NCBI GenBank assembly: GCA_044221705.1
Contig: JBGAOR010000013.1
Location: forward strand, 2,529-66,528
Source of the DNA: Planctomycetota bacterium
GTDB lineage: Bacteria > Planctomycetota > UBA1135 > GCA-002686595
DNA length: 64,000 nt
Direction: 5' to 3'
Shown: one piece after another, positions 21,607-62,843 of the stretch
Position numbering within the stretch: position 1 is the stretch's first letter
Layout: every line of letters begins with the position of its first letter
Notes under the pieces: model-generated
Seen by the model: only the letters and a program-made list of their open reading frames with translations
Databases searched by the model: none
What the model was told of the DNA's origin: nothing
Made by a program: the position numbers and the translations under genes

Positions 21607-22299
21607 ATGCGACTCCGAATCGTCCTGCTCTCGATCCTGATCGCGCTCGCGGTCTTCCTGGGCATCCGGCCGCTCTACCGGTCGGACTGGGCGCTCGAGA
21701 ACGTCCTGGTCGTCGTCGGCTTCGCCTTCCTGTGGCTCACGCGCAGGTGGTTGCCGCTCAGCGACGCGTCGGTCTGGTTCGTGTTCGTGTTCTTCGTCTT
21801 CCACCTGGTCGGCGCGCACTACACGTACTCGGAGGTGCCCTACGACCGGTGGTTCGAGTGGATCACGGGGCGCACGCTGAACTCCGTCCTCGGATTCGAG
21901 CGCAACCACTACGACCGGCTGGTGCACTTCCTATTCGGGCTGCTGCTCGCGGTCCCGATGCGCGAGCTGTTCCTGCGCGTCGTGCCGGCGCGCGGGATCA
22001 CGGGCTACTGGCTGCCTGTCCAGATGACGCTCTCGTGGTCCGCCATCTACGAAGTCGTCGAGTGGTTCACGGCCGAGGTCTTCGGCGGCGGTCTCGGCGC
22101 CGCGTTCCTGGGCACGCAGGGCGACGAGTTCGACGCCGAGAAGGACATGGCTCTGGCCGGCCTCGGCGCGGTGATCGCGATGTGCGCCGTCGCGGCGGTG
22201 AACCGCTCGCGCGGGTTCGACGGGCAGCTGCGCTGGCTGCGGGAGCGGGTCGCGAACCTGCCGAGCCGGAGCGACGGATGCGGGGAGCCCCGCGCCTGA
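21607..22299 (+). CDS. DUF2238-like inner membrane protein (YjdF-like)
   Basis: Multiple predicted TM helices. HYTYSEVPYDRWF and NHYDRLVHFLFGLL resemble the YjdF/DUF2238 family. Confidence 0.7.
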   Translation: MRLRIVLLSILIALAVFLGIRPLYRSDWALENVLVVVGFAFLWLTRRWLPLSDASVWFVFVFFVFHLVGAHYTYSEVPYDRWFEWITGRTLNSVLGFERNHYDRLVHFLFGLLLAVPMRELFLRVVPARGITGYWLPVQMTLSWSAIYEVVEWFTAEVFGGGLGAAFLGTQGDEFDAEKDMALAGLGAVIAMCAVAAVNRSRGFDGQLRWLRERVANLPSRSDGCGEPRA

Positions 22300-24224
22300 T
22301 AGTCTCGCTCGCCGTGCGATCCGTCCTCCACGCCCTCGCCCTCGCCTCCGTCGTCGCGCTGCCGTGCGGCGCCCAGTCTCCCGTGCCCGCGGCGCAGGCC
22401 GCGACGCCCGCGCGCTTCGGCCAGTACCTGCGCGAGATCGGCGGCCTCGCCGAGCCGGGCTTCGCCGCGATCGACGTCGAGGGCCGTCTGTGGGTCACCG
22501 AGCGCTTCACCGGCGCGGTGCGCGCGTTCGGCGCGGACGGGAAGGAGCTCGCGCGCTTCGCGCTCGAGGTGAAGCCCGGCCTCCCGCGCGAGCCGCGCGG
22601 CATCGCGATCTCTCCGGCGGGCGAGATCTACGTCGCGGACGGCGTCGAGCAGCTCGTGGTCGTGCTCGACGGCGCCGGTGCGAAGGTGCGCGCGATCGGC
22701 AACAGGGGGTCCGGCCCGGGCGCGATGCGCGAACCGCGCGGCCTGGCGATCGCCGGCGACAAGCTCTACGTGGCCGACGCGGGCAACCACCGCATCGATG
22801 TGTTCGGGTTGGACGGCAAGTTCGAGCGCGCCATCGGACGCCGTGGCTTCGGCGACGGCGAGCTCCTGGCGCCGAACGACGTCGCGGTCGACGCGCAGGG
22901 CCGCGTCTTCGTCGCGGACCTCGGGAACCAGCGCGTCGTGCGCTTCGAGAAGGACGGCGCTTCGGCCAGGTCCTGGGGCGGGCTGGGTCCGTACTCCGGC
23001 CTCTTCCACGCGCCGACCGGCATCGCCGAGCGCGGCGGGCGCGTCTTCGTCGCCGACCGCGACAACCACCGCGTGCAGGTCTTCGACGGCGACGGCAAGC
23101 CCGACCACGAGTGGGGCATCCACGCGATCCGGCCGCGCGAGGGCGGCGGGAAGCTGCACTATCCCAGCGCGATCGCGCTCTCGCCGAAGGGCGACGTCGC
23201 GGCCGTGGTCGAGGACCTCGAGGGCCGCGTCCAGTTCTTCGGCAACGCGGGCGACACCGGCGCCGATCCGCCGGTCGTCGACCGCAGCTCGGCCGCGCAC
23301 TACGAGGGCGGCTGCGACGTCGCGCGCAACCTGCTCGCGGTGCTCGAACCGGCCGGCCCGTCCGTGTCGATCTTCGACATGGCGCATCCGACGCCGATCG
23401 AGATCACGCGCTTCGGCCGCTCGGGCGCGACCGCGGGCAAGTTCCTCGTGCCGGCGGACGTCGAGTTCGCCGTCGACGGGAAGAGCGTGTGGGTGTCGGA
23501 CCCGCTCGTGCACCGGATCTCGCAGTACGCGCTGGCCTACGAGCCGGGCGGCGTCCTGCGCTTCGATCCCTACATGGCGAAGTTCGTGCGCGCGCTCGAC
23601 CTGGAGAGCGCGCCGAAGCTGCCCGCCGCGCCCTGGCCGCCCGAGCCGACCGCGCTCGAGTTCGCGCCGAACGGGACGCTCTACGTGGCCGACCGCGCGA
23701 ACGGGCGCGTGCTCGCGCTCGAGCCCGAGGGCCAGGTCTTCCGCTCGTTCGGGGAGCCGGGCACCGGTCCGGGACGTCTGCTCGAACCCGTCGCGCTGGC
23801 GTTCGGGCCCGCGACCGAGGGTTTCCTGTACGTCGCCGACGCGCGCGGACGGAAGGTCGAGGCCTTCGACCTCCTGGGCCAGTCGCGCGGCTCGTGGCCG
23901 ATCCCGGACGGACGCGATCGCGACGCGCGGCCGCGCGGACTCGCGGCGGCGGAAGGCGGCGGGTTCTGGGTCAGCGCGGAGGACGCGCACGTGCTCGTGC
24001 GCGTCGACGCCGAGGGCGCGCCGGTCGCGACGATCGGCACGCCCTGGGCGCCGGGCCTCGGGAAGCTCGAGTTCTTCCATCCCGAGGGGCTCGCGCGGAA
24101 CGGCGACGGCCTGGTCGTGATCGACGCCGGCAACCACCGCTTCCAGGTGCTCGACAAGTCGGGCGGATTCCAGACCGCGTGGGGATCGCGCCTCTTCCTG
24201 GAACCGATCCTGAAGGCCAAATAG
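22278..24224 (+). CDS. secreted NHL-repeat beta-propeller protein
   Basis: Signal peptide (LALASVVALPCGAQS). Repeated motifs of the type LYVADAGNHRIDVFG, VFVADLGNQRVVRF, VFVADRDNHRVQVFD, LVVIDAGNHRFQVLD. Start ATG 22278 overlaps the end of the preceding gene by 22 nt. Confidence 0.8.
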   Translation: MRGAPRLIVSLAVRSVLHALALASVVALPCGAQSPVPAAQAATPARFGQYLREIGGLAEPGFAAIDVEGRLWVTERFTGAVRAFGADGKELARFALEVKPGLPREPRGIAISPAGEIYVADGVEQLVVVLDGAGAKVRAIGNRGSGPGAMREPRGLAIAGDKLYVADAGNHRIDVFGLDGKFERAIGRRGFGDGELLAPNDVAVDAQGRVFVADLGNQRVVRFEKDGASARSWGGLGPYSGLFHAPTGIAERGGRVFVADRDNHRVQVFDGDGKPDHEWGIHAIRPREGGGKLHYPSAIALSPKGDVAAVVEDLEGRVQFFGNAGDTGADPPVVDRSSAAHYEGGCDVARNLLAVLEPAGPSVSIFDMAHPTPIEITRFGRSGATAGKFLVPADVEFAVDGKSVWVSDPLVHRISQYALAYEPGGVLRFDPYMAKFVRALDLESAPKLPAAPWPPEPTALEFAPNGTLYVADRANGRVLALEPEGQVFRSFGEPGTGPGRLLEPVALAFGPATEGFLYVADARGRKVEAFDLLGQSRGSWPIPDGRDRDARPRGLAAAEGGGFWVSAEDAHVLVRVDAEGAPVATIGTPWAPGLGKLEFFHPEGLARNGDGLVVIDAGNHRFQVLDKSGGFQTAWGSRLFLEPILKAK

Positions 24225-24689
24225 GTGTCGCCCATGTCCCCTCTCGCGTTCGTGCGCGGCGTCGCGGTCGTCCTGGCGATCCCGGCGGTGCTCGTCGTCG
24301 CTTCCGCCGCGCGCCCGGTGGCGTCGCCGAGCGCGGCGTCGCGCGAGCGCGCCGAGAGGATCGTGACCTCGAACGGCGGCCGCTACGTCGTTCACGTGAC
24401 CGAGCCCGAGGGCGGCTTCGTGCGCGGCAAGCCGCTGTCGCTCGTCGTGCGCGTGACGCGCGCCGGCGATCCGTCCGCGACCGTGAAGGGGCTCGGCCTG
24501 GTCGTCGACGCCGACATGCCCGAGCACCTGCACGGCACGAACCGCGCGCCGCGCGTCGAGCGCCGCGACGACGGCACGTTCGTCGTCGAGAACCTCTACC
24601 TGCACATGCCCGGCTGGTGGGAGGTCTTCCTGGACGTCGTCGAGAGCCCGTGGACGGAGCGCGCGCAGTGGCGCGTCGAACTCGAGTGA
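24225..24689 (+). CDS. small secreted protein of unknown function
   Basis: GTG 24225 immediately follows the TAG of the NHL gene. Has an N-terminal TM / signal segment and high GC3. Contains DADMPEHLHG and HMPGWWE. Its stop overlaps the start of the peroxidase gene. Confidence 0.6.
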   Translation: MSPMSPLAFVRGVAVVLAIPAVLVVASAARPVASPSAASRERAERIVTSNGGRYVVHVTEPEGGFVRGKPLSLVVRVTRAGDPSATVKGLGLVVDADMPEHLHGTNRAPRVERRDDGTFVVENLYLHMPGWWEVFLDVVESPWTERAQWRVELE

Positions 24690-26002
24690 TCCGGCGCGGC
24701 CCTTCGCTGCTCCTCGGCGCGTTCGCGCTCGCCGCCGCGAGCTGCGCGGCCGGCTCGGATCCCGTGCCTGACGCCGCGGCCGCGTCGACTCCGTCCGCGC
24801 CCGCGCCGCAGGAGCGCGCGAGCGCATCCGTGCCGGCGGTCGCCGCCGCGCCGCAGGCCGACCGGCCGAGCGCGCAGCTCGTCGCCGCGCTCGACGCGAC
24901 GACGATCCAGCGCATCCTGCGCCACGGCCCCCTGGGCGAACCCGAACCCGATCCGACGAACCGCGTCGCGACGTCGCGCGAGGCGGCGCACCTCGGACAG
25001 CGCCTCTTCTACGATCCGCGACTCTCGCTCGACTCGTTCCACTCGTGCGCGTCGTGCCACATGCCGTCGCGCGCGTTCGCCGACGGTCTTTCCCTGCCGG
25101 ACCCGCCCGGCTCGAGCGAGCGCCACAGCCCGACCGTGTTGAACGTCGCGCACCAGCGCTGGTTCTTCTGGGACGGGCGCGCGGATTCGCTGTGGAGCCA
25201 GGCGCTGGCCGTCATCGAGAACCCGAAGGAACTCGGCGTCGGCCGGCCGGGCCTCGCGCGGCTCGTCGCGCGCGACGACATCTACCGGGCCGAGTACCGC
25301 GCCGCGTTCGGCGAGGAACCGTCCGACGCCGCGGAGCACGCGGACCGCACGGCCGTGAACGCCGCCAAGGCCATCGCGGCCTACGAGACGCGGCTGCAGA
25401 GCGGCGATTCGGCCTTCGACCGCTTCGCGTCGGCTCTCGCGGCGCGCGACCTCGACGCCGCGGCCGCGTATCCGCCGGACGCGCTGCGCGGGCTCTTGCT
25501 CTTCCTCGGCCGCGGGAACTGCCGCTCGTGCCACGCCGGCACGAACTTCTCCGACGGCGAGTTCCATTCGATCGGCATGCCGCCGCTGGGCGGGGGCAAG
25601 CTCGCCGACGCGGGCCGGATGCGCGGCATCGAGCGCCTGCGCGCCGATCCGTTCCGCGGGACGGGCCCGTGGAGCGACGCGCCGTCGTCGGAGCGCGCGC
25701 TGGAGGTCGACGCGCTCGTCCAGAACTCCGAACAGTGGGGCCAGCTGCGCACTCCGTCCCTGCGGAACGTCGCGCGCACGGCGCCCTACATGAGTCAGGG
25801 ACAGGTGGCGACCTTGCGCGCGGTCCTCGAGTACTACTCGACCCTGGAGGGCGCGGTCCCGTCCGGCCACCACGGCGAGCAGGTCTTGAAGCCGCTGCAC
25901 TTCAGCCCGGAAGAAATGACCGACCTCGAGGCCTTCCTCCGGTCGCTCGACGGCCGCGATCCGCCGCCCGAACTCGTCTGGTCGCCGCCGAAACCGCGCT
26001 GA
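24686..26002 (+). CDS. di-haem cytochrome c peroxidase / MauG-family enzyme
   Basis: Two CxxCH haem motifs (CASCH, CRSCH) with CCP family context (RLFYDPRLS, WDGRADSLWSQA, LRTPSLRNVARTAPYM). Lipoprotein-like N-terminus (LGAFALAAASC). Confidence 0.88.
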   Translation: MIRRGPSLLLGAFALAAASCAAGSDPVPDAAAASTPSAPAPQERASASVPAVAAAPQADRPSAQLVAALDATTIQRILRHGPLGEPEPDPTNRVATSREAAHLGQRLFYDPRLSLDSFHSCASCHMPSRAFADGLSLPDPPGSSERHSPTVLNVAHQRWFFWDGRADSLWSQALAVIENPKELGVGRPGLARLVARDDIYRAEYRAAFGEEPSDAAEHADRTAVNAAKAIAAYETRLQSGDSAFDRFASALAARDLDAAAAYPPDALRGLLLFLGRGNCRSCHAGTNFSDGEFHSIGMPPLGGGKLADAGRMRGIERLRADPFRGTGPWSDAPSSERALEVDALVQNSEQWGQLRTPSLRNVARTAPYMSQGQVATLRAVLEYYSTLEGAVPSGHHGEQVLKPLHFSPEEMTDLEAFLRSLDGRDPPPELVWSPPKPR

Positions 26003-26088
26003 GAGGCGCACTCCCTGGCGGTGCGGGGCGCGACGGCTACCATGGAACGGATACAGTTCGAGCAACGCCCGTAGGAGCCTCCGCGCCG

Positions 26089-28653
26089 ATGCGCAACTCG
26101 TCCCCGACGCCGACCCGTTCCCTCCTGTTCCTCGCGGCGCTCCTCACGACGACGACGGCCCGGACCGCGGCGGCCCACGACGGCGACGGCAAGACCCGGG
26201 ACCGGCGGCCGCGCTTCGAGGTCGCGCGCGGCACGCGCGGCAGCGCGTCGCAGAACCTCCCGCTCGCCGCCGAGAACTTCGCGTTCCCGGCCAGCAACGT
26301 GCAGCTCCTGTCGTGGATCCCGCTGCGCGACTTCGGCTTCGCGCAGGACAACGCCAACTCCTGCTCGGGCTACGTGTCGCCCGGCGGTCGCGAGTACGCC
26401 ATCCTCGGCCTGTACACCGGCACCGCGTTCGTCGACATCACCGATCCGGGCGACCCGGTCATCGTGGCCTCGATCCAGGGCCCCTCGAGCCTGTGGCGCG
26501 ACATGAAGGTGTTCGGCTCCACCTGCTACGCGGTGAGCGAAGGCGGCGGAGGCATCCAGGTCATCGATCTCGCGCAGATCGACGCGGGGGTGGTGACGCT
26601 CGTCGGCGCGATCACGACGGGCGGATCGCAGGCGACGCACACCGTCGGGCTCGACGCGGCCTCGGGATTCCTCTACCGCTGCGGCGGTTCGGGCAACGGG
26701 CTGCGCATCTACAACCTGGCGAACCCGCTCAACCCGACGTACGTCACGACGTGGAGCGACCGCTACGTCCACGAGTGCCAGGCGGTCACGTACACGTCCG
26801 GCCCGTACGCGGGCAAGCAGATCGTGTTCGCGTGCGGCGGGCTGAACGGCGGCTTCGACGACACCGCGCTCGACATCCTCGACGTCACGAACAAGTCGAA
26901 CATCATCCTGCTGAAGCGCTTCCGCTACTCGAACGGCGCGTACTCGCACCAGGGTTGGCTGTCGGCCGACAAGCAGTGGTTCTACCTGAACGACGAACTC
27001 GACGAGCACGGCAGCAACCAGATGCGCACGCGCGTCATCAACGTCGCGTCGCTCACGAACCCGGTCGAGTTCCCCTCGTTCACGACGGGCTCGAACGCCA
27101 TCGACCACAACCTGTACGTCCACGACGGCAAGATCTTCGAGTCCAACTACCGCAGCGGTCTGCACGTTTTCGATGCGGCGGTGCCGTCGGCGCCGGTGCG
27201 CATCGCCTGGTTCGACACGTACCCGCAGGACGAAGCCGCGAACTTCAACTCGCTCTGGAACAACTACCCCTTCCTGCCGAGCGGCACGATCGTCGGCAGC
27301 GACATCGAGAAGGGCCTCTTCGTGTGGCGGCTCGGCGCGCCCGAGATCGATTTCGCGTTCCCCGCGAGCACGCCGCTCGTGGTCAGCCCCGAGGGCGAAG
27401 CCGTCGCGCTCGAGCTCGTCACGGCGCCCGGCGTCACCGTCGCGGGGGGCGCGTCGCTCCACGTGAACTCGGGCGCGGGCTGGAGCGAGATCCCGCTCGC
27501 GGCGCAGCCGACGGGCGGCTACCTGGCTTCGTTCCCGCCGGCCGCGTGCGGCGCGGACCTCGCCTGGTACGTCACGGCGCGCTCGAACACGGGTCGCACG
27601 TGGTCGTGGCCCCAGGGCGCGCCGGCGATCGTGGCGCACGTCACCGCCGCGGCGGCCGTGAGCGTGGCGGTGTCCGACCGGCTCGACGTCCCCACCGGCT
27701 GGACCGGCAGCTCGATCGGCGACACCGCGACGAGCGGCCGCTGGGAGCACGGCGATCCGAACGGATCGACCGCGCAGCCCGAGGACGACCACTCGTTCGC
27801 CGGCACGAACTGCTGGTTCACGGGGCAGGCGCCGCCGCAGTCGCAGGTCGGCCTCGCGGACGTGGACGGCGGGTTCACGACGCTCACGACGCCGGTGTAC
27901 GACCTCTCGGCCCTGCAGCAGCCGGTGATCTCGTACTGGCGCTGGTACGCGAACGCGATCGGATCCGGGACGCCGTTCGAGGACGTGTTCACGGTCCAGA
28001 TCTCGAACGACGGCGGCGCGACCTGGTCGACCGTCGAGGTGATCGGCCCGACGGGCGAGGTCGTGTTCGGCGGCTGGTTCCAGCATCAATTCCGCGTCGC
28101 CGACGTGATCGCGCCGACGAACCAGGTGCGCCTGCGCTTCGTCGCCTCGGACCTCGGCAACCCGTCGACGGTCGAGGCCGCGATCGACGACCTGGCGATC
28201 GCCGACGTGACCTGCCCGACGCCCGGACCGACGACGTACTGCGTCGCCAAGGTGAACAGCCAGGGCTGCGTGCCGGCGATCTCGACCAGCGGCACTCCGA
28301 GCGCGTCCTCGGCATCGGCCTTCCCGATCCAGTGCGCGAACGTGCTCAGCAACAAGCCCGGCATCCTGGTCTACGGCGCGCAGCGCGCCGCGACGCCGTT
28401 CCAGGGCGCGACCCTGTGCATCGCCGCGCCGGTCCGGCGCACCCCGATCCAGATGTCGGGCGGCAATCCGCCGCCGGCGGACTGCTCGGGCGTCTTCACG
28501 TTCGACTTCAACGCGCTCGTGCGCGCCGGGACCGACGCGGGCCTCGTGCCCGGGCGCCGCGTCGTGGCGCAGTACTGGTCGCGCGACGTCTTCGATCCCA
28601 CCGGCTTCGGCAGCAGCCTGTCCGATGCCTGCGAGTTCACGATCCAGCCCTGA
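26089..28653 (+). CDS. secreted LVIVD-repeat / choice-of-anchor-B-like propeller protein with a jelly-roll domain and the conserved C-terminal domain
   Basis: AGGAG lies about 12 nt upstream of ATG 26089, and there is a signal peptide (LLFLAALLTTTTARTAAA). LVIVD-type blades (GGGIQVIDLAQ, NGLRIYNLANP, ALDILDVTNKS, SGLHVFDAA). A MAM-like region follows, then a Cys-containing tail of about 140 aa (28231..28650). Confidence 0.8.
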   Translation: MRNSSPTPTRSLLFLAALLTTTTARTAAAHDGDGKTRDRRPRFEVARGTRGSASQNLPLAAENFAFPASNVQLLSWIPLRDFGFAQDNANSCSGYVSPGGREYAILGLYTGTAFVDITDPGDPVIVASIQGPSSLWRDMKVFGSTCYAVSEGGGGIQVIDLAQIDAGVVTLVGAITTGGSQATHTVGLDAASGFLYRCGGSGNGLRIYNLANPLNPTYVTTWSDRYVHECQAVTYTSGPYAGKQIVFACGGLNGGFDDTALDILDVTNKSNIILLKRFRYSNGAYSHQGWLSADKQWFYLNDELDEHGSNQMRTRVINVASLTNPVEFPSFTTGSNAIDHNLYVHDGKIFESNYRSGLHVFDAAVPSAPVRIAWFDTYPQDEAANFNSLWNNYPFLPSGTIVGSDIEKGLFVWRLGAPEIDFAFPASTPLVVSPEGEAVALELVTAPGVTVAGGASLHVNSGAGWSEIPLAAQPTGGYLASFPPAACGADLAWYVTARSNTGRTWSWPQGAPAIVAHVTAAAAVSVAVSDRLDVPTGWTGSSIGDTATSGRWEHGDPNGSTAQPEDDHSFAGTNCWFTGQAPPQSQVGLADVDGGFTTLTTPVYDLSALQQPVISYWRWYANAIGSGTPFEDVFTVQISNDGGATWSTVEVIGPTGEVVFGGWFQHQFRVADVIAPTNQVRLRFVASDLGNPSTVEAAIDDLAIADVTCPTPGPTTYCVAKVNSQGCVPAISTSGTPSASSASAFPIQCANVLSNKPGILVYGAQRAATPFQGATLCIAAPVRRTPIQMSGGNPPPADCSGVFTFDFNALVRAGTDAGLVPGRRVVAQYWSRDVFDPTGFGSSLSDACEFTIQP

Positions 28654-28654
28654 A

Positions 28655-31600
28655 ATGAGCGGCCCAACGGCCGCTTCGAGGACCCCCATGCTGTTCGCCG
28701 TACGCCCCCACCTCTTCCGCTACACCGGACCGGTCGCGGCGTGGCCGCGACCGGAAGCGCTGGACTCGGCGCTCCAGGCCTTCCGCGCCGAACACGGCGC
28801 GAGCTGGCAGGTCGCCCGCGACACCGAGACCGGCTTCGCCGAGATGCTCTACGGCGGCGGCGCGCAGCTCGGGGCCGCGGTGCGGACGGAGGCCGAAGCG
28901 CAGGTGCTCGCCGGGCTCGCGCTCGCCGCGACCGCGTCGGTGCACGGCGTCGCGACGGAAACGCTGCACGTCGAGCGCGTCGTGTTCCTGCCCCTGGGCA
29001 TGATCGGCACCTCGGACAAGTGGACCGTGCGCTACGGGCAGCGGCTCGGCGGCCTGGACGTCGAGGGCGCCAAGGTCAACGTGCTGCTCGACTCGACCGG
29101 TCGCATCCTGTCGGTGCACTCGACCGCGGTCGCGGGCGTCGAGACGATCCCGTCGCTGCCGACCTTCGGCCCCGAGAGCGCGCTGGCCGTCGCCGGCGAC
29201 GCCTTCCTCGCACGCCACGAGATCCAGGCGGCCGACGCCTCGCGCCCGGTGCTCACGGCGCGCCGCACGCTCGCCGACGGACGGCGCGTCGCGCGCGCGG
29301 CGTGGTCGATCGACCTGTCGCACGGACCCGCCAGCGAGACCCCGATCGCCGACCGCTACTGGATCGACGCGCTGAACGGCTCGGTCCTGGCGGTGGAGAA
29401 CCAGATCCACCACTTCGACGTCACGGGCACGGTGCGCACGAAGGCGACGCCGGGCCTCGCGCCCGACACCGCCAGCAACCCCGAGACGGACCAGATCATG
29501 CGCTACGCGCGCGTGACGAGCTCGGCCGGCGAAGTGACCACCGACGCCAGCGGCGTCTTCGTGTACCCGGGCGTGAACACGCCCCTGTCCGTCACGGTCA
29601 CCTACTACGGGACCTACAACGACGTCCAGAACGCGGCCGGCGCGGAGTACTCGCTCACGACGACGGTCCAGCCCAACACGCCGACCACGATCAACATGAA
29701 CCCGGCGCCGACGGACCAGCTGACGGCGCAGGCGAACGCGATGATCGGCGTCAACCGGCTGCGCGATTACGTGCGCTCGGTGAACCCGACGGACGCGACG
29801 TCCGACTTCCGCTACGTGGTGAACGTGAACCAGGCGAACACCTGCAATGCGTTCTTCAACGGCAACTCGATCAACTTCTTCCTCGCCGGCGGGGGCTGCC
29901 CGAACACCTGCTACTCGACCGTGATCAGCCACGAGGCCGGCCACTGGCTGAACGTCCTCTACGGCACGGGCAACGGCGGCGACGGGATGGGCGAAGGCAA
30001 CGCCGACGTGTTCGCCATGTACAACTACGACGATCCGGTCGTGGCCCAGGACTTCTTCGGCGTCGGCTCGCCGATCCGCACGGGCCTCAACAACCGGACC
30101 TTCTGCGGCGATACGACCCCGGCCTGCTACGGCGAGGTCCACTCCGACGGCGAGCCCTGGATGGGCGCCGCCTGGAAGATCCGCAACCGCCTGAACCAGA
30201 CGAACGGCAACGCGGTCGGCGATGCGATCTCGAACGCGATCTTCATGGGCTGGATGAACGGCTACAACCAGTCGCAGATCCGCTCGATCATCGAGACCCA
30301 GTGGCTCACGCTGGACGACGACGACGCGAACCTCACGAACGGCACGCCGCACTTCGGCGACATCGACGGCGGGTTCCGCGACCAGGGCTTCCCGGGCGTC
30401 ACGCTCGTCGCGCTGGCGATCGCCAACGTCACCGCGCTGCCCGACACCGAGAACGTGGCCGGACCGTACACGGTCGACGCTTCGATCTCGGCCAACTTCA
30501 GCCCGCCCCTGACCGGCACGATCCTGCGCTGGCGCGTGAACGGCGGCGCGTTCCAGGACGTGGCGATGGCGAGCCTGGGCGGCGGTTCCTACCGCGGCAC
30601 GATCCCGGGTCAGCCCTATCCGTCGCTCGTGCAGTACTACGTCGTGGCGACGGACAGCGCGGCCCGCGTGGCCACGTCGCCGCCGAGCGCGCCGGAGCAA
30701 CTCCACTCGTTCGACGTCGGCACGCGGAACTCGATCGCGAGCTACGGTTTCGAGACGACGGCCTCCGGCTGGACCACGGGCACGGTCGGCGACACGAGCA
30801 ACCCCGAGGTCGACTGGGCCCGCGGTCTCCCGCTCGGGCGCGGCGGCAACGTGGGCGGCACGCCCTGGCGCGATCCGAGCGCGGCATTCGCCGGGTTCTC
30901 GTGCTTCGCGAACGACCTCGGGTCCGGAGCGAACGACGGGGCGTACTCGGCCAACGTGCACAGCTGGCTGCGCTCGCCGGCGCTGAACCTCACCGGGCGC
31001 CAGAACGTGAGGCTGCGCTTCCAGAGCTGGCTCTCGTGCGACGGGAACGCCAACGACCAGGTGCGCGTGCTCGTGAACGGCACGACCTTCTACCTGAACC
31101 CGGCGGCGCCGCGGTCCGACACGGGCTGGGGCATGCAGGAGTTCGACATCTCCTCGGTCGCCGCGAACAACCCGTCGGTCCAGATCGAGTTCCAGCTGCG
31201 CTCGAACGGCACGAACCAGTTCGGCGGCTGGGCGATCGACGAAGTGAGCGTGTTCGACCTCTCGGTGATCGTGCCCCCGTGCCCGGCTCCGCAGAGCTAC
31301 TGCGTCGGCGCGCCGAACACGGTCGGAGGCGGAGCGCAGATGGGGTACTCGGGCACGGGCAACCTCGTGCTCAACAACCTGCAGCTCTTCGTCTACGCCT
31401 GCCCGCCGCACACGTCGGGTCTCTTCTTCTCCGGCACGACCGCCGTGCAGACCCCGTTCGGCAACGGATTCCGTTGCGTGGGCGGATCGACGGTCCGCCT
31501 GGGCATCCTGACCACCGACACGTTCGGCGACGCGACGCTCCCGCTCGACCTGAACAACCTGCCGGGCGGGGCCGCGCTCCCGGGTCAGGTGCGGAACTTC

Positions 31601-31681
31601 CAGTTCTGGTACCGCAATCCGGCCGCGGGCGGCGCGGGCTTCAACCTCAGCAACGGCCTGTCGGTCACGATCTGCAACTGA
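28655..31681 (+). CDS. thermolysin/fungalysin-like gluzincin metalloprotease with a jelly-roll domain and the conserved C-terminal domain
   Basis: HEAGH followed 19 aa later by EGNAD (HExxH ... ExxxD gluzincin arrangement), with a propeptide-like N-terminal region. MAM-like domain (GGWAIDEVSVFD). C-terminal tail 31292..31678. Start ATG 28655 lies just after the upstream stop; alternatives are 28625 and 28688. No obvious signal peptide. Confidence 0.8.
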   Translation: MSGPTAASRTPMLFAVRPHLFRYTGPVAAWPRPEALDSALQAFRAEHGASWQVARDTETGFAEMLYGGGAQLGAAVRTEAEAQVLAGLALAATASVHGVATETLHVERVVFLPLGMIGTSDKWTVRYGQRLGGLDVEGAKVNVLLDSTGRILSVHSTAVAGVETIPSLPTFGPESALAVAGDAFLARHEIQAADASRPVLTARRTLADGRRVARAAWSIDLSHGPASETPIADRYWIDALNGSVLAVENQIHHFDVTGTVRTKATPGLAPDTASNPETDQIMRYARVTSSAGEVTTDASGVFVYPGVNTPLSVTVTYYGTYNDVQNAAGAEYSLTTTVQPNTPTTINMNPAPTDQLTAQANAMIGVNRLRDYVRSVNPTDATSDFRYVVNVNQANTCNAFFNGNSINFFLAGGGCPNTCYSTVISHEAGHWLNVLYGTGNGGDGMGEGNADVFAMYNYDDPVVAQDFFGVGSPIRTGLNNRTFCGDTTPACYGEVHSDGEPWMGAAWKIRNRLNQTNGNAVGDAISNAIFMGWMNGYNQSQIRSIIETQWLTLDDDDANLTNGTPHFGDIDGGFRDQGFPGVTLVALAIANVTALPDTENVAGPYTVDASISANFSPPLTGTILRWRVNGGAFQDVAMASLGGGSYRGTIPGQPYPSLVQYYVVATDSAARVATSPPSAPEQLHSFDVGTRNSIASYGFETTASGWTTGTVGDTSNPEVDWARGLPLGRGGNVGGTPWRDPSAAFAGFSCFANDLGSGANDGAYSANVHSWLRSPALNLTGRQNVRLRFQSWLSCDGNANDQVRVLVNGTTFYLNPAAPRSDTGWGMQEFDISSVAANNPSVQIEFQLRSNGTNQFGGWAIDEVSVFDLSVIVPPCPAPQSYCVGAPNTVGGGAQMGYSGTGNLVLNNLQLFVYACPPHTSGLFFSGTTAVQTPFGNGFRCVGGSTVRLGILTTDTFGDATLPLDLNNLPGGAALPGQVRNFQFWYRNPAAGGAGFNLSNGLSVTICN

Positions 31682-50572: not shown

Positions 50573-52489
50573 GTGCGCGTCCTCATCGCCTCCGCGCCGC
50601 ATCGCGACACGTTCGGCTACTCGATGCCGCCGCCGGGCCTCCTGCGCCTGGGCGGCTGGCTCGAGCGCGAGGGCGTCGACGTCGCGCTCGTGGACCTGGC
50701 GCACGAGCTGGCCGCGGGGCGACTGCCCGAGGGCGACGGCCTGTGCGATGCCGCGGCGGACCTCCTCCTGCGAGGCGGACCGTTCGACGCGATCGGCCTG
50801 TCGGTGATGGGCGCGACGCTGCCCGCGGGGCTCGCGATCCTGGAGCGGATCCGCGCGCGCGATCGCGCGATTCCGCTCTGGATCGGCGGCCCGGGCACGA
50901 CCGGCGTCGACACCGCGCTCGTCGAGCGCGCGCACTGCGTCGACGTCGTCGTGCGCGGCGAGGGCGAGATCACGACGACGGAGCTCGCGCGCGCGCGCGG
51001 CCTGTCGCCGCACGGCATCGCGGGGCTCACGTGGCGCGACGCCGGCGGACGGGCCGTGCGCGAGCCGGACCGCGCGCCGATCGCCGACCTCGACGCGCTC
51101 GCGCCGTATGCGTGGCATCTCCTGCCGCCGATCGCGGCGTACAAGCGCATCACCGGCGCGGCCGACGGGCTCGTGCCGGTCGACTCGGGCCGCGGCTGCG
51201 TCTACGACTGCTCGTTCTGCACGATCGGGAGGTTCTGGTCGCGGCGCTCGCGCGTGCTGCCGGCGCGCAGGCTCGCGGACGAGGTCGAGGCGCTGCGCGC
51301 GATCGACGGCGCGCACGCGGCGTACCTGTGCCACGACCTCTTCGCGGCGAACCGCGCGCACGCCGTGCAGTTCTGCGCCGAGATGGTCGCGCGCGGGAAT
51401 CCCGTGCCGTGGGAAGTGCGCGCGCGCGCCGACCACCTGGACCGCGAGCTGCTCCAGCTCATGGGGCGCGCCGGCTGCTACCGCGTCCTGCTCGGCATCG
51501 AGTCGGCGGCCGAGAGCGTGCGCGAAGCGTGCGACAAGTCTCTGCGCCCCGGCACGGACCTCCTGACGGTCGTGCGCGACTGCGTCGAGGCGGGCGTGAC
51601 GCCGATCCTGTCGGTGATCCTGGGGCTGCCGGGCGAGGGGCCGGCCGAGCTCGAAGCGAGCCTCGACTTCTGCGCGCGCGCGGCGCTGCTCGGCGGCGTG
51701 AACGTGTCGCTGCACCTCGTGAACCCGCAGCCGGGTTGCACGCTGGGCGAGGAGCACGGCGCGAGCGCGCGCGCGGTGCCGGGGATCCCGCCCGACATGG
51801 CGCGCGGCGCGGGCGAGACGGCGGCGGAGCGCGCCTGGATCGACGCGCACCCCGATCTCTTCACGACGTTCGCGCTGCTCGCCGGCGACCCGGTGGGCCA
51901 AGGCGCGCTGTCCGAGATCGCGAGCGAGCTGCCCGAGGTCCTCCACCGGTATCCGCGCACGTTCGCACTGCTCGGCCGCGCGCTCGAAACGAGCGCGCAC
52001 GGCGGGTTCGCGGCCTGGAAGCGCCACGGCCGGAGCTTCGAGGCCTTCGCGCGCGTCCAGCGCGATCCGCTCGTCGACGACGTGCTGGCCGTCGAGCAGG
52101 CCGGCGTGCGCGCCGCCGCACTGGCCGTGCGCGCGCCGAGCGTCGGCCCGCGCGCGCGCGGCGTGCTCGTCGAGACACGCTGCGACGTGGCCGCCGTGTT
52201 CGAGGCCCTGCGCGGCGGCCGCGAGCTGCCCCGCGCCGAACCGCGCGCGTCCTGGATCTGCGCCGTGCCCGCGGACCCGTCGCGCGCGCTGGCCGGAATC
52301 CGCACACTGCGCGTGTCGGCCGACGTCGCGCGCCTCCTGCAGGCGCTGGACGGCGCGCGCCCGATCGACGAGCTCGAGGCCGCGCGCCCGGGCTTCGCGG
52401 GCGCGATCGCGAGCCTCGAACGCGCCGGCCTCGTGGAATCGGGAACAGGAACGGCCGCCGCGGAGCGGATGGAGACGACGACACCATGA
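50573..52489 (+). CDS. B12-binding-domain radical SAM protein (class B) with a PqqD/RRE-like C-terminal segment
   Basis: GTG 50573 (VRVLIASAPH); GC3 is poor upstream. Rossmann-like B12 domain (IGLSVMGATL ... VVVRGEGE). Canonical CVYDCSFC at 51197..51220. The last 70 aa or so (VSADVARLLQALDGARPIDELEA ... IASLERAGLVE) resemble a winged-helix RiPP recognition element. Confidence 0.85.
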   Translation: MRVLIASAPHRDTFGYSMPPPGLLRLGGWLEREGVDVALVDLAHELAAGRLPEGDGLCDAAADLLLRGGPFDAIGLSVMGATLPAGLAILERIRARDRAIPLWIGGPGTTGVDTALVERAHCVDVVVRGEGEITTTELARARGLSPHGIAGLTWRDAGGRAVREPDRAPIADLDALAPYAWHLLPPIAAYKRITGAADGLVPVDSGRGCVYDCSFCTIGRFWSRRSRVLPARRLADEVEALRAIDGAHAAYLCHDLFAANRAHAVQFCAEMVARGNPVPWEVRARADHLDRELLQLMGRAGCYRVLLGIESAAESVREACDKSLRPGTDLLTVVRDCVEAGVTPILSVILGLPGEGPAELEASLDFCARAALLGGVNVSLHLVNPQPGCTLGEEHGASARAVPGIPPDMARGAGETAAERAWIDAHPDLFTTFALLAGDPVGQGALSEIASELPEVLHRYPRTFALLGRALETSAHGGFAAWKRHGRSFEAFARVQRDPLVDDVLAVEQAGVRAAALAVRAPSVGPRARGVLVETRCDVAAVFEALRGGRELPRAEPRASWICAVPADPSRALAGIRTLRVSADVARLLQALDGARPIDELEAARPGFAGAIASLERAGLVESGTGTAAAERMETTTP

Positions 52490-55246: not shown

Positions 55247-57121
55247 ATGAAGCACGCCTGGATTCCGCTCTCGCTCCTCGCCCTCGCCTCCAGCGCTTTC
55301 GCCGAAGGCACGAAGTACGCGCACAAACCCGCGCCCGCAGGAGTCCCCGCCGCGACGCCGCAGCCGGTGACTTCCTTCATCAACGGTTCGGATTCGTGCA
55401 CGACCCCGGACGTCATCGCGGGCCTCGGACCCCACGGGTTCGACAACTCGGCCGCGACGACGGGAGCGGAGGGCCAGACCGACCCGCTGTGCCTGGCGTT
55501 CGGCTCCACCGCGATCGACCAGGACGTGTGGTTCTCGTGGACGGCGCCCTCGAGCGGGACGGCGTTCCTCGACATCTGCTCGAGCGGCAGCACGGTCGAC
55601 ACGAAGGTCGCCGTGTACTCCGGCTCCGGATGTCCGAGCGGACCCGCGATCGGCTGCAACGACGACGCGTGCCCGGGGCTGCAGAGCAACGTGACCTTCC
55701 CCTGCGTGGCGGGCAACCCCTACACGATCCAGGTCGGCACGTACCCGGGCGCGGGCGGCGGCGTCGGTTCCTTCACGTTCACGATCAGCGCGGGCCCGGG
55801 CAACGATTCGTGCACGACCCCCCAACCGATCGCCGGCCCCGGCCCGCACGCGTACGACACGACGTTCGCGACGACGGGCACGCAGGGACAGGCCAACTCG
55901 CGCTGCTTCATCTTCAACACGTCCGCGATCCAGTCCGACGTCTGGTACACGTGGACCGCCGCCGCGAGCGGATGGGTCGCCGTGGACACCTGCACGGGCG
56001 GACAGCACGACCTGCGCGTGGCCGTGTACGCCGGCGCGGGCTGCCCGGTCGGTGAACCGATCATCTGCGACGACGACGCCTGCGGCACGATCGGCGCCTC
56101 GTCGCGCGCTCCGTTCCTGGCCACCGCCGGCCAGTCGTACACGATCCAGGTCGGCAGCTACCCGGGTCAGGCCGGCGCGCCGGGGTTCTTCACCCTGTCG
56201 CCGTTCACCCCCGCCGCGGGCGATTCGTGCAGCGCGCCGATCGACATCGCGGGCGCGGGGCCCTTCAACTGGGACAACTTCGACGGCGTGACCGGACAGG
56301 AAGGCCAGAACGAGGCTCTGTGCTCCAACGAGATGATCACGCACGACCTGTGGTATCGCTGGACGTCGTACTGCACGTCGAACGTGACCGTCACGCTGTG
56401 CGCGCTCTCGAGCCTCGACACGAAGGTCGCGGTGTACTCCGGCAGCGGCTGCCCGGCGAGTTCGGCCCTGGCTTGCAACGACGACGCCTGCGCGGCCGGC
56501 GGACCTTCCTCGGTCACCTTCGCGGCCGTCGACGGCCAGACCTACATGATCCAGCTCGGCTGCTGGCCGGGCGAGACGCCCGGTGCGGGCGCGTTCACGA
56601 TCACGACGAGCTGCCCGCCGCCGACCGGGACCGTCTACTGCATCGGCGACGGCCAGTCGCCGCACACCGCGTGTCCGTGCGGCAACAACAGCCCGACGGC
56701 GGCCGGCGTGGGCTGCCTCAACTCGCTGGGCAGCGGCGGACGGCTGCGCGCATTCGGGAACCCGAGCCTCACCGACGACAACGACGGCTCGGCCTCGGTC
56801 ACGCTGATCGGCAACAGCATGCCCAACAGCTCGTGCCTCTACTTCCAGGGCACGGCGATGCAGAACGCGGGCAACGGATCGGTGTTCGGCGACGGCCTGC
56901 GCTGCGCCGCCGGCTCGATCCTGCGCCTCGACACGGAGTCGAACGTCGCGGGCACGTCGCAGTACCCGAACCCGTCGCAGCCGCTGCCGCTCTCGGTCCG
57001 CGGGAACGTGCTGTCCCCGGGAACGCGCACGTACCAGGCCTGGTACCGCAACGCAGCGGCGTTCTGCACGGCCTCGACGTTCAACCTGTCGAACGGCGTC
57101 GAGATCGTCTGGGCGCTCTAG
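55247..57121 (+). CDS. secreted protein: three tandem Cys-rich domains of about 135 aa plus the conserved C-terminal domain
   Basis: Signal peptide (IPLSLLALASSAFA). Three repeats, each with DSC..P..IAG.GP, DVW(F/Y).WT, DTKVAVYSGSGCP, C(N/D)DDAC and YTIQVG.YPG. C-terminal module 56632..57118 contains ACPCGNN and WYRNAAAFC..STFNLSNG. Confidence 0.75.
   Translation: MKHAWIPLSLLALASSAFAEGTKYAHKPAPAGVPAATPQPVTSFINGSDSCTTPDVIAGLGPHGFDNSAATTGAEGQTDPLCLAFGSTAIDQDVWFSWTAPSSGTAFLDICSSGSTVDTKVAVYSGSGCPSGPAIGCNDDACPGLQSNVTFPCVAGNPYTIQVGTYPGAGGGVGSFTFTISAGPGNDSCTTPQPIAGPGPHAYDTTFATTGTQGQANSRCFIFNTSAIQSDVWYTWTAAASGWVAVDTCTGGQHDLRVAVYAGAGCPVGEPIICDDDACGTIGASSRAPFLATAGQSYTIQVGSYPGQAGAPGFFTLSPFTPAAGDSCSAPIDIAGAGPFNWDNFDGVTGQEGQNEALCSNEMITHDLWYRWTSYCTSNVTVTLCALSSLDTKVAVYSGSGCPASSALACNDDACAAGGPSSVTFAAVDGQTYMIQLGCWPGETPGAGAFTITTSCPPPTGTVYCIGDGQSPHTACPCGNNSPTAAGVGCLNSLGSGGRLRAFGNPSLTDDNDGSASVTLIGNSMPNSSCLYFQGTAMQNAGNGSVFGDGLRCAAGSILRLDTESNVAGTSQYPNPSQPLPLSVRGNVLSPGTRTYQAWYRNAAAFCTASTFNLSNGVEIVWAL
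55382..56630 (+). repeat. three in-frame tandem repeats of about 405 nt (protein-domain repeats)
   Basis: Repeat units start near 55382, 55799 and 56219. Conserved Cys positions and motifs recur at the same spacing in all three. Confidence 0.6.
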
Positions 57122-57270
57122 GACGCGCGCGTCCGGCGCGTCACGAGCGCGCCGGCCTCATGCCGCGGGCCGCGGAGCTCTCGGGCTCCGCGGCCCGCGC
57201 TGCATCGCGCGCAGCGCCGGTCGCGGGGTTCCATTCCGCGGCGCGAGCGCGATACTCGATCGCGCTCGAC

Positions 57271-58389: not shown

Positions 58390-59577
58390 ATGCGCATCTC
58401 CACACTCCTGACCGCCCTGTCCGTCTGCTTCCTGGCCGGCCCGTCGATCGCCGGCCGGCTGATCGCGGTCGACAGCTCGCGCGCGCTGTACGACGTCGAC
58501 ATCGCGACCGGCGCCAAAACGCAGATCGGGACGGTGTCGGCCGGCGCGGGCTCGCCCAGCGGCCTGGCGCGCAATCCCATCACGGGCACGATCTACCTGT
58601 GCTCCTCCACCGTCGATTCGTTGTTCACCCTCGACATCACCACCGGTTCCGCCGTGGTGGTCGGTCCCCTGGGCTCCACGACGATCGTCATGCAGGGGCT
58701 CGAGTGGGACAGCACGCAGGGCGCGTTGTGGGGCGCGTCCAACGGGAACCTCTTCCAGATCGGCCCGATGAGCGGCGCGGCGACGCAGATCGGAACGTCG
58801 GGACTCACGTCGTTCACGAACCTGGGCTACGTGCCCTCGACGGACTCGCTGTACGCCACGAACGTCGGCACCGACCGTCTGTACAACGTCAACCGCGGCA
58901 CGGGCGCGATGACCATGATCGGTCCGCTCGGGTCGACGGCAGCGAACGCGAGCGGGCTCGCCTACGACACCGACAACGACGTCATGTACCTGATCGACGG
59001 GACGTCGGACACGCTCTACACGGTCAACCTCACGACCGGCGCTGCGACGATCGTCGGCTCGACGGGCACGGGCAACCTGCAGGGGCTCGTCTACATCCCG
59101 GGGAACGCGCCGGTCACGCCGTTCTGCTTCGGCGACGGCACCGGCGTCGCCTGCCCGTGCGGCAACAACGGCGCCCCCGGGAATGGCTGCCGCAATTCCG
59201 TGGCGGTCGGCGGCGCGAACCTGTTCGCCTCCGGCAACGCGAGCATCGCCAACGACACGTTCCTGCTGCAGGGCCAGGACATGCCCAACAGCTCCGCCCT
59301 GTACTTCCAGGGCACGGCGCAGCAGGCGGGCGGCGGTCAGGCGTTCGGCGACGGGCTGCGCTGCGCGGCGGGCACGATCGTCCGCCTGGGCATCGAGCAG
59401 AACAACCTGGGCACGAGCCAGTACCCGACGTTCCCCGAGCTCTCCATCTCGGTGCGCGGACTGTGCACCGTCGGCGCGACGCGGACGTACCAGGTGTGGT
59501 ACCGCAACGCGGCAGCGTTCTGCACGTCGAGCACGTTCAACCTCTCGAACGGCCTGCAGGTGACCTGGCTGCCCTGA
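58390..59577 (+). CDS. secreted repeat (propeller-like) protein with the conserved C-terminal domain
   Basis: Signal peptide (LLTALSVCFLAGPSIAG). About five repeats of the pattern LY.V(D/N)..TGA.T.IG..G. C-terminal module 59119..59574 with ACPCGNN, YFQGTAQQ, FGDGLRCAAG, WYRNAAAFCTSSTFNLSNG. Confidence 0.75.
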   Translation: MRISTLLTALSVCFLAGPSIAGRLIAVDSSRALYDVDIATGAKTQIGTVSAGAGSPSGLARNPITGTIYLCSSTVDSLFTLDITTGSAVVVGPLGSTTIVMQGLEWDSTQGALWGASNGNLFQIGPMSGAATQIGTSGLTSFTNLGYVPSTDSLYATNVGTDRLYNVNRGTGAMTMIGPLGSTAANASGLAYDTDNDVMYLIDGTSDTLYTVNLTTGAATIVGSTGTGNLQGLVYIPGNAPVTPFCFGDGTGVACPCGNNGAPGNGCRNSVAVGGANLFASGNASIANDTFLLQGQDMPNSSALYFQGTAQQAGGGQAFGDGLRCAAGTIVRLGIEQNNLGTSQYPTFPELSISVRGLCTVGATRTYQVWYRNAAAFCTSSTFNLSNGLQVTWLP

Positions 59578-62804: not shown

Positions 62805-62843
62805 GCCTCACGTGTCCCGCGGCGGCGCCGCGGGATCCGCGTG

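Follow-up and report, generated by a model that had tools for sequence, protein, structure and literature searches.

Four proteins encoded in the window, i.e., the 64,000-nucleotide stretch of Planctomycetota DNA analyzed here, end in copies of one domain, which represents a new, undescribed domain family. The family is large, restricted to Planctomycetota and located essentially always at the extreme C-terminus, and comparative evidence suggests that the tail is probably a shared tag that anchors or sorts secreted proteins. On balance, we lean toward the view that this self-folding, mostly disulfide-stabilised beta-sandwich of ~135-160 residues serves the Sec-exported proteins of an uncultured Planctomycetota lineage as a shared localisation handle.

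The first-pass annotation of this DNA had noticed that an LVIVD protein and the neighbouring metalloprotease end in a shared Cys-containing module. BLASTP bears this out, with tail 1 (28231-28650) and tail 2 (31292-31678) aligning over their full length at 25% identity (E=5e-4); the motifs quoted for them, YC..N..G, G(I/L)(L/F).(Y/S)G, TPF(Q/G).G, C(I/V).(A/G), Q(Y/F)W(S/Y)R(D/N) and EFTIQP/SVTICN, fall in aligned columns. Two further tails, suspected near 56632..57118 and 59119..59574, were confirmed as relatives by profile matches, and tail 4 is strongly linked to tail 2 (E=9e-17). By BLASTP and the family profile, tails 1-4 form one homologous family; the profile matches all four at E values of 1e-45 to 1e-76 and nothing else in the six-frame translation of the window. 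Each tail is present in a single copy, ends at a stop codon and holds the invariant C / FGxGxxC / R / QxWxR / N columns.

The gene-end positions given earlier for the first two tails were also correct, as the ORFs 25045..28653 (+) and 28625..31681 (+) end there. A broader profile moves the domain start ~13-15 residues upstream, to 28192 (tail 1) and 31247 (tail 2), adding a conserved C-P-x-P linker cysteine. The start proposed for tail 3, 56632, was one base out of frame, 56633 being the in-frame position. Furthermore, the single "subtype A" to which tails 1 and 2 had been assigned is in fact two, and three subtypes are distinguished: A1 (tail 1), A2 (tail 2) and B (tails 3 and 4), the last having an additional CxGDG...CPCGN...GC head (Table 1).

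Table 1. Tail-bearing genes, pre-tail domains and tails in the window.
Feature	Position	Strand	Evidence	Motifs or composition
LVIVD / choice-of-anchor B protein gene, 854 aa	26089..28653	+	ORF and gene call; TIGR04312 choice_anch_B E=2.9e-88	
Pre-tail domain of LVIVD protein, ~180 aa, MAM-like / choice-of-anchor-J-like	27694..28224	+	BLASTP vs protease pre-tail region E=1e-6	
Tail 1, subtype A1	28192..28650	+	Profile A2 1.3e-53, profile A4 2.2e-45; end = stop codon	YCxAKVNSxGC ... PFQGxxLC ... SGGNPPPxDCSG ... QYWSRD ... EFTIQP
HEXXH metalloprotease gene, FTP propeptide	28688..31681	+	ORF; PF07504 FTP E=1.1e-4	
Pre-tail domain of protease, MAM-like / choice-of-anchor-J-like	30764..31291	+	BLASTP E=1e-6; NF038128 choice_anch_J 22.7 bits, cutoff 30	
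Tail 2, subtype A2	31247..31678	+	Profile matches 4.2e-55, 3.5e-51; AlphaFold2 pLDDT 97.2	YCxGAPNxxGxGA ... PFGNGFRCVGG ... FQFWYRNPAAGGAGFNLSNGLSVTICN
Gene of secreted protein with PPC / galactose-binding-like repeats, tail 3	55247..57121	+	PF23759 GBD_T9SS_assoc E=1.9e-9; PF04151 PPC	
Tail 3, subtype B	56600..57118	+	Profile A5 8.3e-73, profile A4 3e-52	Cys-rich CxGDG..CPCGN..GC head + beta-sandwich core
Gene of secreted DUF4394 protein, tail 4	58390..59577	+	PF14339 DUF4394 E=4.2e-13	
Tail 4, subtype B	59107..59574	+	Profile A5 1.5e-75, profile A4 2.5e-53	

A Sec-type N-terminus is found in three of the four tail proteins of the window. The LVIVD protein carries an N-terminal Sec-type signal peptide, and its orthologues are named choice-of-anchor B, some of them with PF08309 LVIVD. 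The signal peptide of the tail 3 protein, taken from the sequence, is MKHAWIPLSLLALASSAFA. For the metalloprotease, whose HEAGH motif was read directly from the sequence, inspection of the N-termini at starts 28688, 28625 and 28655 revealed no obvious Sec signal peptide. The gene for the DUF4394 protein with tail 4 has an exact copy in GCA_044229935.1. Apart from their tails, the LVIVD protein and the protease had been described as otherwise unrelated; this does not hold, as the ~180-aa domains preceding the tails are homologous. The MAM label given to this jelly-roll before both tails comes from sub-threshold matches (Pfam MAM E=0.47, InhA-like_MAM E=0.067, choice_anch_J 22.7 bits) and from the UniRef name of one orthologue.

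Searches of Pfam-A, NCBIfam 20.0 and PDB sequences gave no match to the tail family, and no recurrent Pfam-A or NCBIfam family was found on the tail in 114 members at E<=1 (25 most frequently matched families listed). A fold search of the PDB returned nothing at E<=1e-3, the best matches listed being generic FN3/Ig-like sandwiches with TM<=0.53. These negative results agree with the earlier statement that the tail matches no known domain. AlphaFold2 predicts tail 2 to be compact and all-beta (pLDDT 97.2), with 11 strands of 3-9 residues; in the tail 4 model the core reaches pLDDT 85-97 and the Cys-rich head ~50, and the modelled tails span 134-152 aa. The earlier remark that the tail has no TM helix, no PEP or LPXTG motif and no T9SS CTD pattern was likewise upheld, the tail ending in a beta strand and the respective models being unmatched.

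Several described modules were considered as the identity of the tail. A PEP-CTERM, LPXTG or other tripartite signal was rejected, as there is no hydrophobic helix at the end and no NCBIfam sorting-signal model matched. LPXTG, PEP-CTERM, MYXO-CTERM, GlyGly-CTERM and PGF-CTERM do share the choice-of-anchor logic, in that passenger families of alternative anchors also bear the tail; however, such signals comprise ~25-35 aa (motif, transmembrane helix and basic cluster, with sortase-type processing), whereas the tail is a soluble folded domain. An outer-membrane beta-barrel anchor of the autotransporter or OmpA-like type, which would have long amphipathic transmembrane strands and an aromatic beta-signal at its end, was rejected in view of the strands of 3-9 residues, the conserved cysteines and the terminal Pro; the OMP_b-brl protein encoded in the window, for comparison, ends in ...VRYQF. 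Type I dockerins (PF00404) resemble the tail as C-terminal modules with well conserved paralogues on many unrelated secreted proteins of one genome, placed at the same position on orthologous passengers. Nevertheless, they consist of duplicated Ca-binding helical repeats of ~70 aa, whereas the tail is all-beta, ~140 aa long and more strictly terminal; a dockerin identity was discarded on the all-beta model and the lack of a PF00404 match on any tail.

At E<=1e-3 the family profile retrieved 22,146 representatives of 50% identity clusters (17,991 at E<=1e-10), and all 79 genome loci as well as every named sequence originate from uncultured Planctomycetota. These loci, from 12 Planctomycetota MAGs, contain 140 tails, with at least two tails in 38 loci and up to ~20 tails per MAG within the small sampled fraction of each. 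The first-pass annotation had raised the prospect of internal copies being as common as C-terminal ones. They are not: the domain ends within two residues of the C-terminus in 336/340 proteins and its end coincides with the stop codon in 135/140 tails of the genome loci, while two seemingly internal copies that were examined (L059 and L003) proved to be masked N runs. All 340 proteins have a single copy with no tandem arrangement. The C-terminus of the tail is a beta strand of the form ...[VIL]x[WF]xP, the last residue being Pro in 233 and position -3 being W or F in 294 of the 340 proteins. Subtype B tails are 54-68% identical on unrelated passengers, and the C / FGxGxxC / R / QxWxR / N columns are invariant over 97-138 representatives. 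Cys-less variants of the tail occur, and the disulfides are therefore not essential. A Sec-type N-terminus, of the signal-peptidase-I type, was counted in 95/112 Met-starting representatives by a crude rule rather than a trained predictor.

The tail is attached to a wide range of passengers, of kinds that known sorting signals typically carry: GBD_T9SS_assoc (9/97), the choice-of-anchor families C, E and NxxGxxAF, as well as HAF, DNRLRE, FG-GAP, lectins, Endonuclease I, a metalloprotease family that depends on myxosortase, and peptidases of the M10 and M23 types, among others. Choice-of-anchor-type domains were named for their fusion to alternative C-terminal sorting signals, and the same logic, previously suggested for the tail, is evident in the orthologues nearest to the LVIVD passenger (120 proteins, at least 48% identity): 71 end in the tail (A1, A2 or B), ~25 in dockerin-like repeats (four of them with a precomputed PF00404 assignment) and the remainder in other C-terminal tails. 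The tail of Engelhardtia mirabilis P0437 (...ASNAVSLELAP), on the same passenger, also occupies the same position, with a comparable length of ~130 aa and a similar last strand, ending SN[AG]-x-x-V-x-[FL]-x-P; however, its profile-profile alignment with the tail covers the last 20 columns alone (E=0.026, probability 1.9%). In addition, a tail-only protein, composed of signal peptide, linker and tail, is encoded in a ribosomal-protein operon between rpsG and fusA; it is kept on 9 contigs and forms a 16-member cluster. The existence of such a stand-alone protein argues that the tail has a function of its own. Where the loci contain a complete tail protein, it is nearly always at least 260 aa long and has a real passenger, and one clear stand-alone family was found.

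In the mechanism that we favour, the carriers would cross the inner membrane via their N-terminal signal peptides and the tail would fold in the oxidising periplasm. One shared partner would then bind the folded tail, presumably through a conserved polar/aromatic face (FGxGxRC ... R ... QxWxR[ND] ... LS[ND]) and the free [WF]-x-Pro carboxy terminus, so that passengers as different as proteases, nucleases, cupredoxins, lectins and beta-propellers would arrive at the same location. There, non-covalent contacts of the tail with an envelope glycan or a scaffold protein would retain them on the cell surface, following a dockerin-like or SLH-like logic, and the tail may double as a recognition element for outer-membrane crossing, as the T9SS C-terminal domain does. 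The partner and the surface location are inferred, as would be any cleavage of the tail, and the conserved Arg, Trp, Gln and Asn residues could equally well contact an external ligand. The sorting, anchoring or secretion role initially proposed is partly supported: comparative evidence speaks well for a probable role in localisation, in which the tail may drive export, anchoring or both. The gene neighbourhoods yielded no machinery. Among 117 immediate neighbours with 152 Pfam families, none of which occurred more than five times, no recurrent partner was found, the sole recurrent neighbour being a Ser/Thr-kinase-WD40 protein, of a family that is highly paralogous in Planctomycetota. No T9SS machinery (SprA/Sov, PorV, PorU, GldKLMN) was found in the window or among the 117 neighbours, genome coverage comprising the window and ~12 kb flanks.

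An unlikely reading is that the tail acts as a secretion signal proper, whereby a dedicated outer-membrane translocon would read the folded domain prior to its cleavage or covalent attachment, in analogy to T9SS but in a phylum not known to possess one. The strict extreme C-terminal site with the conserved [WF]-x-Pro, the combination of an N-terminal signal peptide with a folded C-terminal beta-sandwich, the dozens of cargo-like paralogues per genome (up to ~20 counted per sampled MAG fraction) and passengers overlapping T9SS-type cargo domains, e.g., GBD_T9SS_assoc and PPC, are consistent with it. T9SS C-terminal sorting domains (type A TIGR04183 / PF18962 Por_Secre_tail; type B TIGR04131) are likewise folded beta-sandwiches at the extreme C-terminus of Sec-exported carriers, with one copy per protein, many cargo paralogues per genome and similar passengers (proteases, lectin-like domains, GBD_T9SS_assoc, choice-of-anchor families). 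However, they measure roughly 80-100 aa, whereas the tail, at ~135-160 aa and with 11 modelled strands, is ~1.5-2 times larger, has conserved cysteines and occurs in Planctomycetota; T9SS is not known outside Bacteroidota and the FCB group. PF18962, TIGR04183 and TIGR04131 were unmatched on the four window proteins and absent from the 25 most frequent families over 114 members at E<=1, and T9SS CTD structures were absent among the fold matches listed (50 per model). Against an export signal also stand the tail-only protein, which has essentially no cargo, the exchange of the tail on orthologues with dockerin-like modules, which serve attachment rather than export, and the lack of a machinery gene linked to tail genes in the neighbourhoods examined. 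Cargo of the T11SS (Slam) also has a folded targeting domain, a beta-barrel, at the C-terminal end, and there this soluble domain is what an outer-membrane translocator recognises; nevertheless, no evidence from sequence or fold connects it with the tail, and Slam cargo is often lipoproteins, unlike the tail proteins with their signal-peptidase-I-type signal peptides. A broader proposal, which we judge unlikely, is that the tail could be the cargo tag of an undescribed, clade-specific Planctomycetota outer-membrane export-and-attachment system, an independently arisen counterpart of T9SS, in which subtypes A1, A2 and B would each serve a receptor or destination of their own and the tail-only protein encoded in the ribosomal operon would form part of the structure.

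It appears quite improbable that the tail works as a lectin-like or carbohydrate-binding module aiming secreted enzymes and binding proteins at external particles or algal/microbial polysaccharide instead of the cell's own envelope. A beta-sandwich in which Trp, Tyr, Arg, Gln and Asn positions are invariant would be compatible with such a role, and there is a weak, sub-significant fold likeness to sandwich domains of carbohydrate-active proteins. However, a described CBM was rejected, as no Pfam, NCBIfam, PDB sequence or fold match was found on the tail, with CAZy-only families lacking structures lying outside the search. Moreover, glycoside hydrolases are rare as passengers, the common ones being cupredoxins, nucleases, proteases and propellers, and the tail is always single and terminal, unlike CBMs, which are found at N-terminal, internal and tandem positions.

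The tail-only protein and the very high conservation among paralogues could also point to a self-assembling structural unit, with tail-only proteins forming a surface lattice or fibre into which tail-bearing enzymes co-assemble, but given the single clear stand-alone family and the passengers on almost all complete tail proteins we find this very doubtful. Least credible is the idea that the tail does no targeting and merely caps and stabilises its passenger or helps it to fold. The compact disulfide-bonded fold of the model and a C-terminal Pro that would presumably resist carboxypeptidases might suit such a cap, but a nearly identical one on unrelated passenger folds and its interchange with dockerin-like modules are both hard to explain in this way.

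To our knowledge, the placement of proteins on or beyond the unusual envelope of Planctomycetota is poorly understood, and we know of no phylum-specific sorting signal that is a folded domain. The family marks out a large and coherent group of proteins, probably extracellular or exposed at the surface, in Planctomycetota that are abundant in freshwater and other environments. Its more than 22,000 clusters (50% identity) all bear the label "hypothetical" at present, and neither Pfam nor NCBIfam has a model for them. With a tail profile, thousands of proteins could be annotated and a surface proteome predicted for each genome, and the same profile would serve as a precise phylogenetic-profiling query for a receptor or machinery. 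Should the tail prove to be a tag for sorting or anchoring, engineering could also employ it as a display handle.

Four proteins encoded in the window, which has a G+C content of 72%, end in the same C-terminal beta-sandwich domain of 135-160 residues, here called the tail (tails 1 to 4). Genes in the window and in the genome loci discussed below were called with a codon log-odds caller. Tails 1 and 2 could be aligned end to end (E=5e-4), tail 2 matched tail 4 at E=9e-17, and profiles of the family, searched against the six-frame translation of the window, returned the four tails as sole matches (1e-45 to 1e-76), each of them directly closed by a stop codon. The homology between the ends of the LVIVD protein and the neighbouring protease, proposed in a first-pass annotation, is thus supported; all the motifs quoted there fall in aligned columns, and the two further regions named as related (near 56632..57118 and 59119..59574) are tails 3 and 4. 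Certain details had to be revised. Position 56632 is out of frame, the in-frame start being 56633, and the tail ends were correctly placed, while the starts were not, the domain beginning approximately 13-15 residues earlier and taking in a conserved C-P-x-P cysteine. Furthermore, the LVIVD protein and the protease had been described as otherwise unrelated, but a preceding domain of ~180 aa is common to both (E=1e-6); its designation as MAM-like finds sub-threshold matches and none above threshold. At none of its candidate ATG codons (28625, 28655, 28688) does the metalloprotease show a recognisable Sec signal peptide, in contrast to the other three tail proteins. An exact copy of the DUF4394 protein was found in assembly GCA_044229935.1.

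Tail-bearing genes and neighbouring features, in window coordinates, with corresponding genome loci (L) where available
Feature	Gene or region	Tail	Match or locus
Choice-of-anchor B / LVIVD protein, tail 1	26089-28653	28192..28650	TIGR04312, E=2.9e-88
HEXXH metalloprotease with fungalysin/thermolysin propeptide, tail 2	28688-31681	31247..31678	PF07504
Secreted protein with PPC / galactose-binding-like repeats, tail 3	55247-57121	56600..57118	
DUF4394 secreted protein, tail 4	58390-59577	59107..59574	
NHL to LVIVD gene neighbourhood	22278-28653		L084 10001-15759
B12-binding radical SAM gene, first	50573-52489		
B12-binding radical SAM gene, second	52486-54738		
63-aa ORF	54735-54926		
Tail 3 gene and DUF695 gene	55247-57702		L003 1075-3399
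Outer-membrane beta-barrel protein	59668-60243 (-)		PF13505
Microcompartment shell cluster	60878-63134 (-)		L080 2941-4325
Tail-only protein P0186			L081/L082 8001-8576; L083 1042-1617

No description of the tail family exists in the libraries and papers searched, in line with the earlier view that the tail matches no familiar sorting or anchoring domain. Pfam-A and NCBIfam 20.0 gave no match on the tails of the four window proteins, and no family was recurrent on the tail when 114 members were scanned singly against Pfam-A and NCBIfam (E<=1). The tail profile met only chance antibody matches among PDB sequences (E>=0.04), and no description of the domain was found in the literature searched. 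The AlphaFold2 model of tail 2, based on an alignment of 114 sequences, was very confident (pLDDT 97.2, pTM 0.91) and all-beta, its 11 strands each measuring 3-9 residues; in the subtype B model the core was confident and the Cys-rich head poorly defined. Neither model had a Foldseek match in the PDB at E<=1e-3, the best matches being generic FN3/Ig-like, X325/LPMO-like and transglutaminase sandwiches (TM<=0.53); T9SS C-terminal domains, CBMs and outer-membrane barrels were not prominent among the matches. With its short strands, conserved cysteines and terminal Pro, the tail cannot be an outer-membrane barrel; the beta-barrel protein that the window does encode has the canonical ...YQF terminus. 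The gene of that small protein (ending ...VRYQF) lies directly downstream of the tail 4 gene, an adjacency that is probably coincidental.

The family is very large and taxon-restricted. A profile of the four tails retrieved 1,641 proteins from a word-indexed database, and when 1.84 billion representatives were searched exhaustively with HMMER, 22,146 were retrieved at E<=1e-3, 17,991 at E<=1e-10 and 4,172 at E<=1e-30. All retrieved source names were Planctomycetota or Planctomycetia. More than 571 stretches came up in a genome scan; its top 80 (79 distinct loci) belong without exception to 12 uncultured Planctomycetota MAGs, a taxon list biased towards subtype B, whose alignment was used for the scan. 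These MAGs originate from lakes, a glacier-fed stream and other sites and contain up to ~20 tails each in the small part sampled, with at least two tails in 38 loci. Among cultured relatives of the LVIVD protein, that of Engelhardtia mirabilis is the closest (50% identity).

Three clear subtypes were distinguished. Subtype A1 (tail 1) has an SGGNPPPxDCSG loop and six cysteines, A2 (tail 2) carries PFGNGFRCVGG ... FQFWYRNPAAGGAGFNLSDGL, and B (tails 3 and 4) possesses an additional CxGDG..CPCGN..GC head followed by MPNSSALYFQGT ... FGDGLRCAGG ... YQVWYRNAAAFCTxSTFNLxNG. Cys-less variants also match the tail profile (~1e-5). The first Cys, FGxGxxC, an Arg, QxWxR and an Asn are invariant in all subtypes, and the invariant polar and aromatic residues suggest a binding face.

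The position of the tail is strict. Each of 340 proteins carries one tail, never in tandem, and in 336 it ends within two residues of the C-terminus, in agreement with the C-terminal position described in the first-pass annotation. The four exceptions comprise a truncation, a five-residue extension and two other extensions (P0300 and P0143) that look like read-through or frameshift. Of the 340 proteins, 69% have Pro as their final residue and 86% a Trp or Phe at position -3. Since the word-indexed protein search returned tail matches no longer than about twice the query, longer proteins retrieved by the exhaustive search were used to check the position again. The 748 kb of genome DNA surrounding the 79 matches contained 140 tails, of which 135 end at a stop codon; two seemingly internal copies inspected (L059 and L003) proved to be interrupted by runs of masked N. 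Signal peptides of the Sec type and signal-peptidase-I kind were recognised by a crude rule on 95 of 112 full-length carriers.

The passengers, i.e., the parts of the carriers ahead of the tail, are diverse, and dozens of well-conserved tail paralogues occur on unrelated ones, those of subtype B sharing 54-68% identity. Pfam and NCBIfam annotation of 97 full-length representatives, together with precomputed Pfam of the first matches, revealed propellers (FG-GAP, Kelch, PD40, BNR), Laminin_G_3, C-type lectin, GBD_T9SS_assoc (9 of the 97 representatives), DUF4394, DUF7453 and plastocyanin-type cupredoxins, as well as enzymes (Endonuclease I, M10 and M23 peptidases). Several passengers belong to NCBI alternative-anchor families, namely choice-of-anchor C, E and NxxGxxAF, HAF repeat, DNRLRE, FDP and a myxosortase-dependent metalloprotease family. 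Among the homologues of the LVIVD and MAM-like passenger, the 120 closest (48-98% identity) were also compared for their C-terminal module. The tail studied here, mostly A1 but also A2, B and variants, was present on 71 and dockerin-like repeats on ~25, mostly from Phycisphaerae MAGs (PF00404 precomputed on four); a different tail of ~130 aa ending ASNAVxVxFxP was found on 11, E. mirabilis included, and a tail ending SNLVIHAFP and a TIG domain with a basic end on three each. C-terminal modules at this position are thus exchangeable, and one of the alternatives, the dockerin-like one, is a known attachment module. The end of the ASNAVxVxFxP tail (on P0437, P0394, P0404 and others) resembles the last strand of the studied tail, LSNGLxVxWxP; hhalign aligned that strand only (E=0.026, probability 1.9%), and no homology is claimed. 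A GSDH-PKD protein encoded at this E. mirabilis locus has a further, different tail-like sequence at its end.

In a protein of 191 aa (P0186), nothing but a linker of ~35 aa separates the signal peptide from an A2-type tail. In Planctomycetia MAGs its gene is part of the ribosomal-protein operon, where it is flanked by rpsG and fusA; it is conserved on nine contigs, and the protein is one of a 16-member cluster at 90% identity.

We thus believe, with somewhat more confidence than doubt, that the tail is a localisation handle recognised by one shared, putative partner, because of its strict terminal position and single copy, the signal peptides of its carriers, the conserved paralogues on unrelated passengers, the resemblance of these passengers to those of known sorting signals and the interchange with dockerin-like modules. 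Within this reading we lean towards non-covalent surface retention, given the dockerin swap, the tail-only protein of the ribosomal operon and the invariant polar and aromatic residues. The main rival, a T9SS-like export tag, is compatible with surface retention; we regard such a tag as rather unlikely. The tail could also be a lectin or CBM aimed at external substrates, to which its invariant polar and aromatic residues would be suited; glycoside hydrolases are rare among the passengers, and the combined features of the tail match sorting or anchoring modules rather than catalytic or substrate-binding ones, making this option improbable. A self-assembling structural unit seems very improbable, and a passive stabilising cap scarcely credible.

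In a search for the putative partner, the 597 called genes of the window and the loci were clustered, which gave one recurrent tail-less family, a Ser/Thr-kinase-WD40 protein at 10 loci; this family is highly paralogous in Planctomycetota, and its recurrence near tail genes is judged incidental. The 117 immediate neighbours of tail genes were heterogeneous (152 Pfam families, none more than five times), and among the window genes nothing resembled sorting machinery. Modular C-terminal anchoring or sorting domains are of a known kind, and what is new here is the fold, the sequence and the host phylum. The family, with its function as we infer it, offers a solid, testable way into the question of how Planctomycetota localise their proteins and marks an obvious annotation gap.

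Regarding the surroundings of the four genes, the LVIVD gene is preceded by genes for an NHL-repeat protein, a YtkA-like protein and a di-haem cytochrome c peroxidase (CCP_MauG). In cultured E. mirabilis, too, the NHL, CCP and LVIVD genes are found next to one another, an arrangement that points to a conserved functional unit. A possible RiPP-like cassette (50573-54926) lies immediately upstream of the tail 3 gene; it contains a pair of neighbouring B12-binding radical SAM genes and, after them, a 63-aa ORF without a family match. Synteny of the tail 3 gene with its downstream neighbour, the DUF695 gene, is preserved in MAG CAZKIY01 (L003), where runs of masked N give the tail its seemingly internal position. 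Finally, the window harbours a bacterial microcompartment shell cluster with BMC, two EutN/CcmL genes, CsoS1D_N and an ACT-domain gene, which is also found at a second locus.
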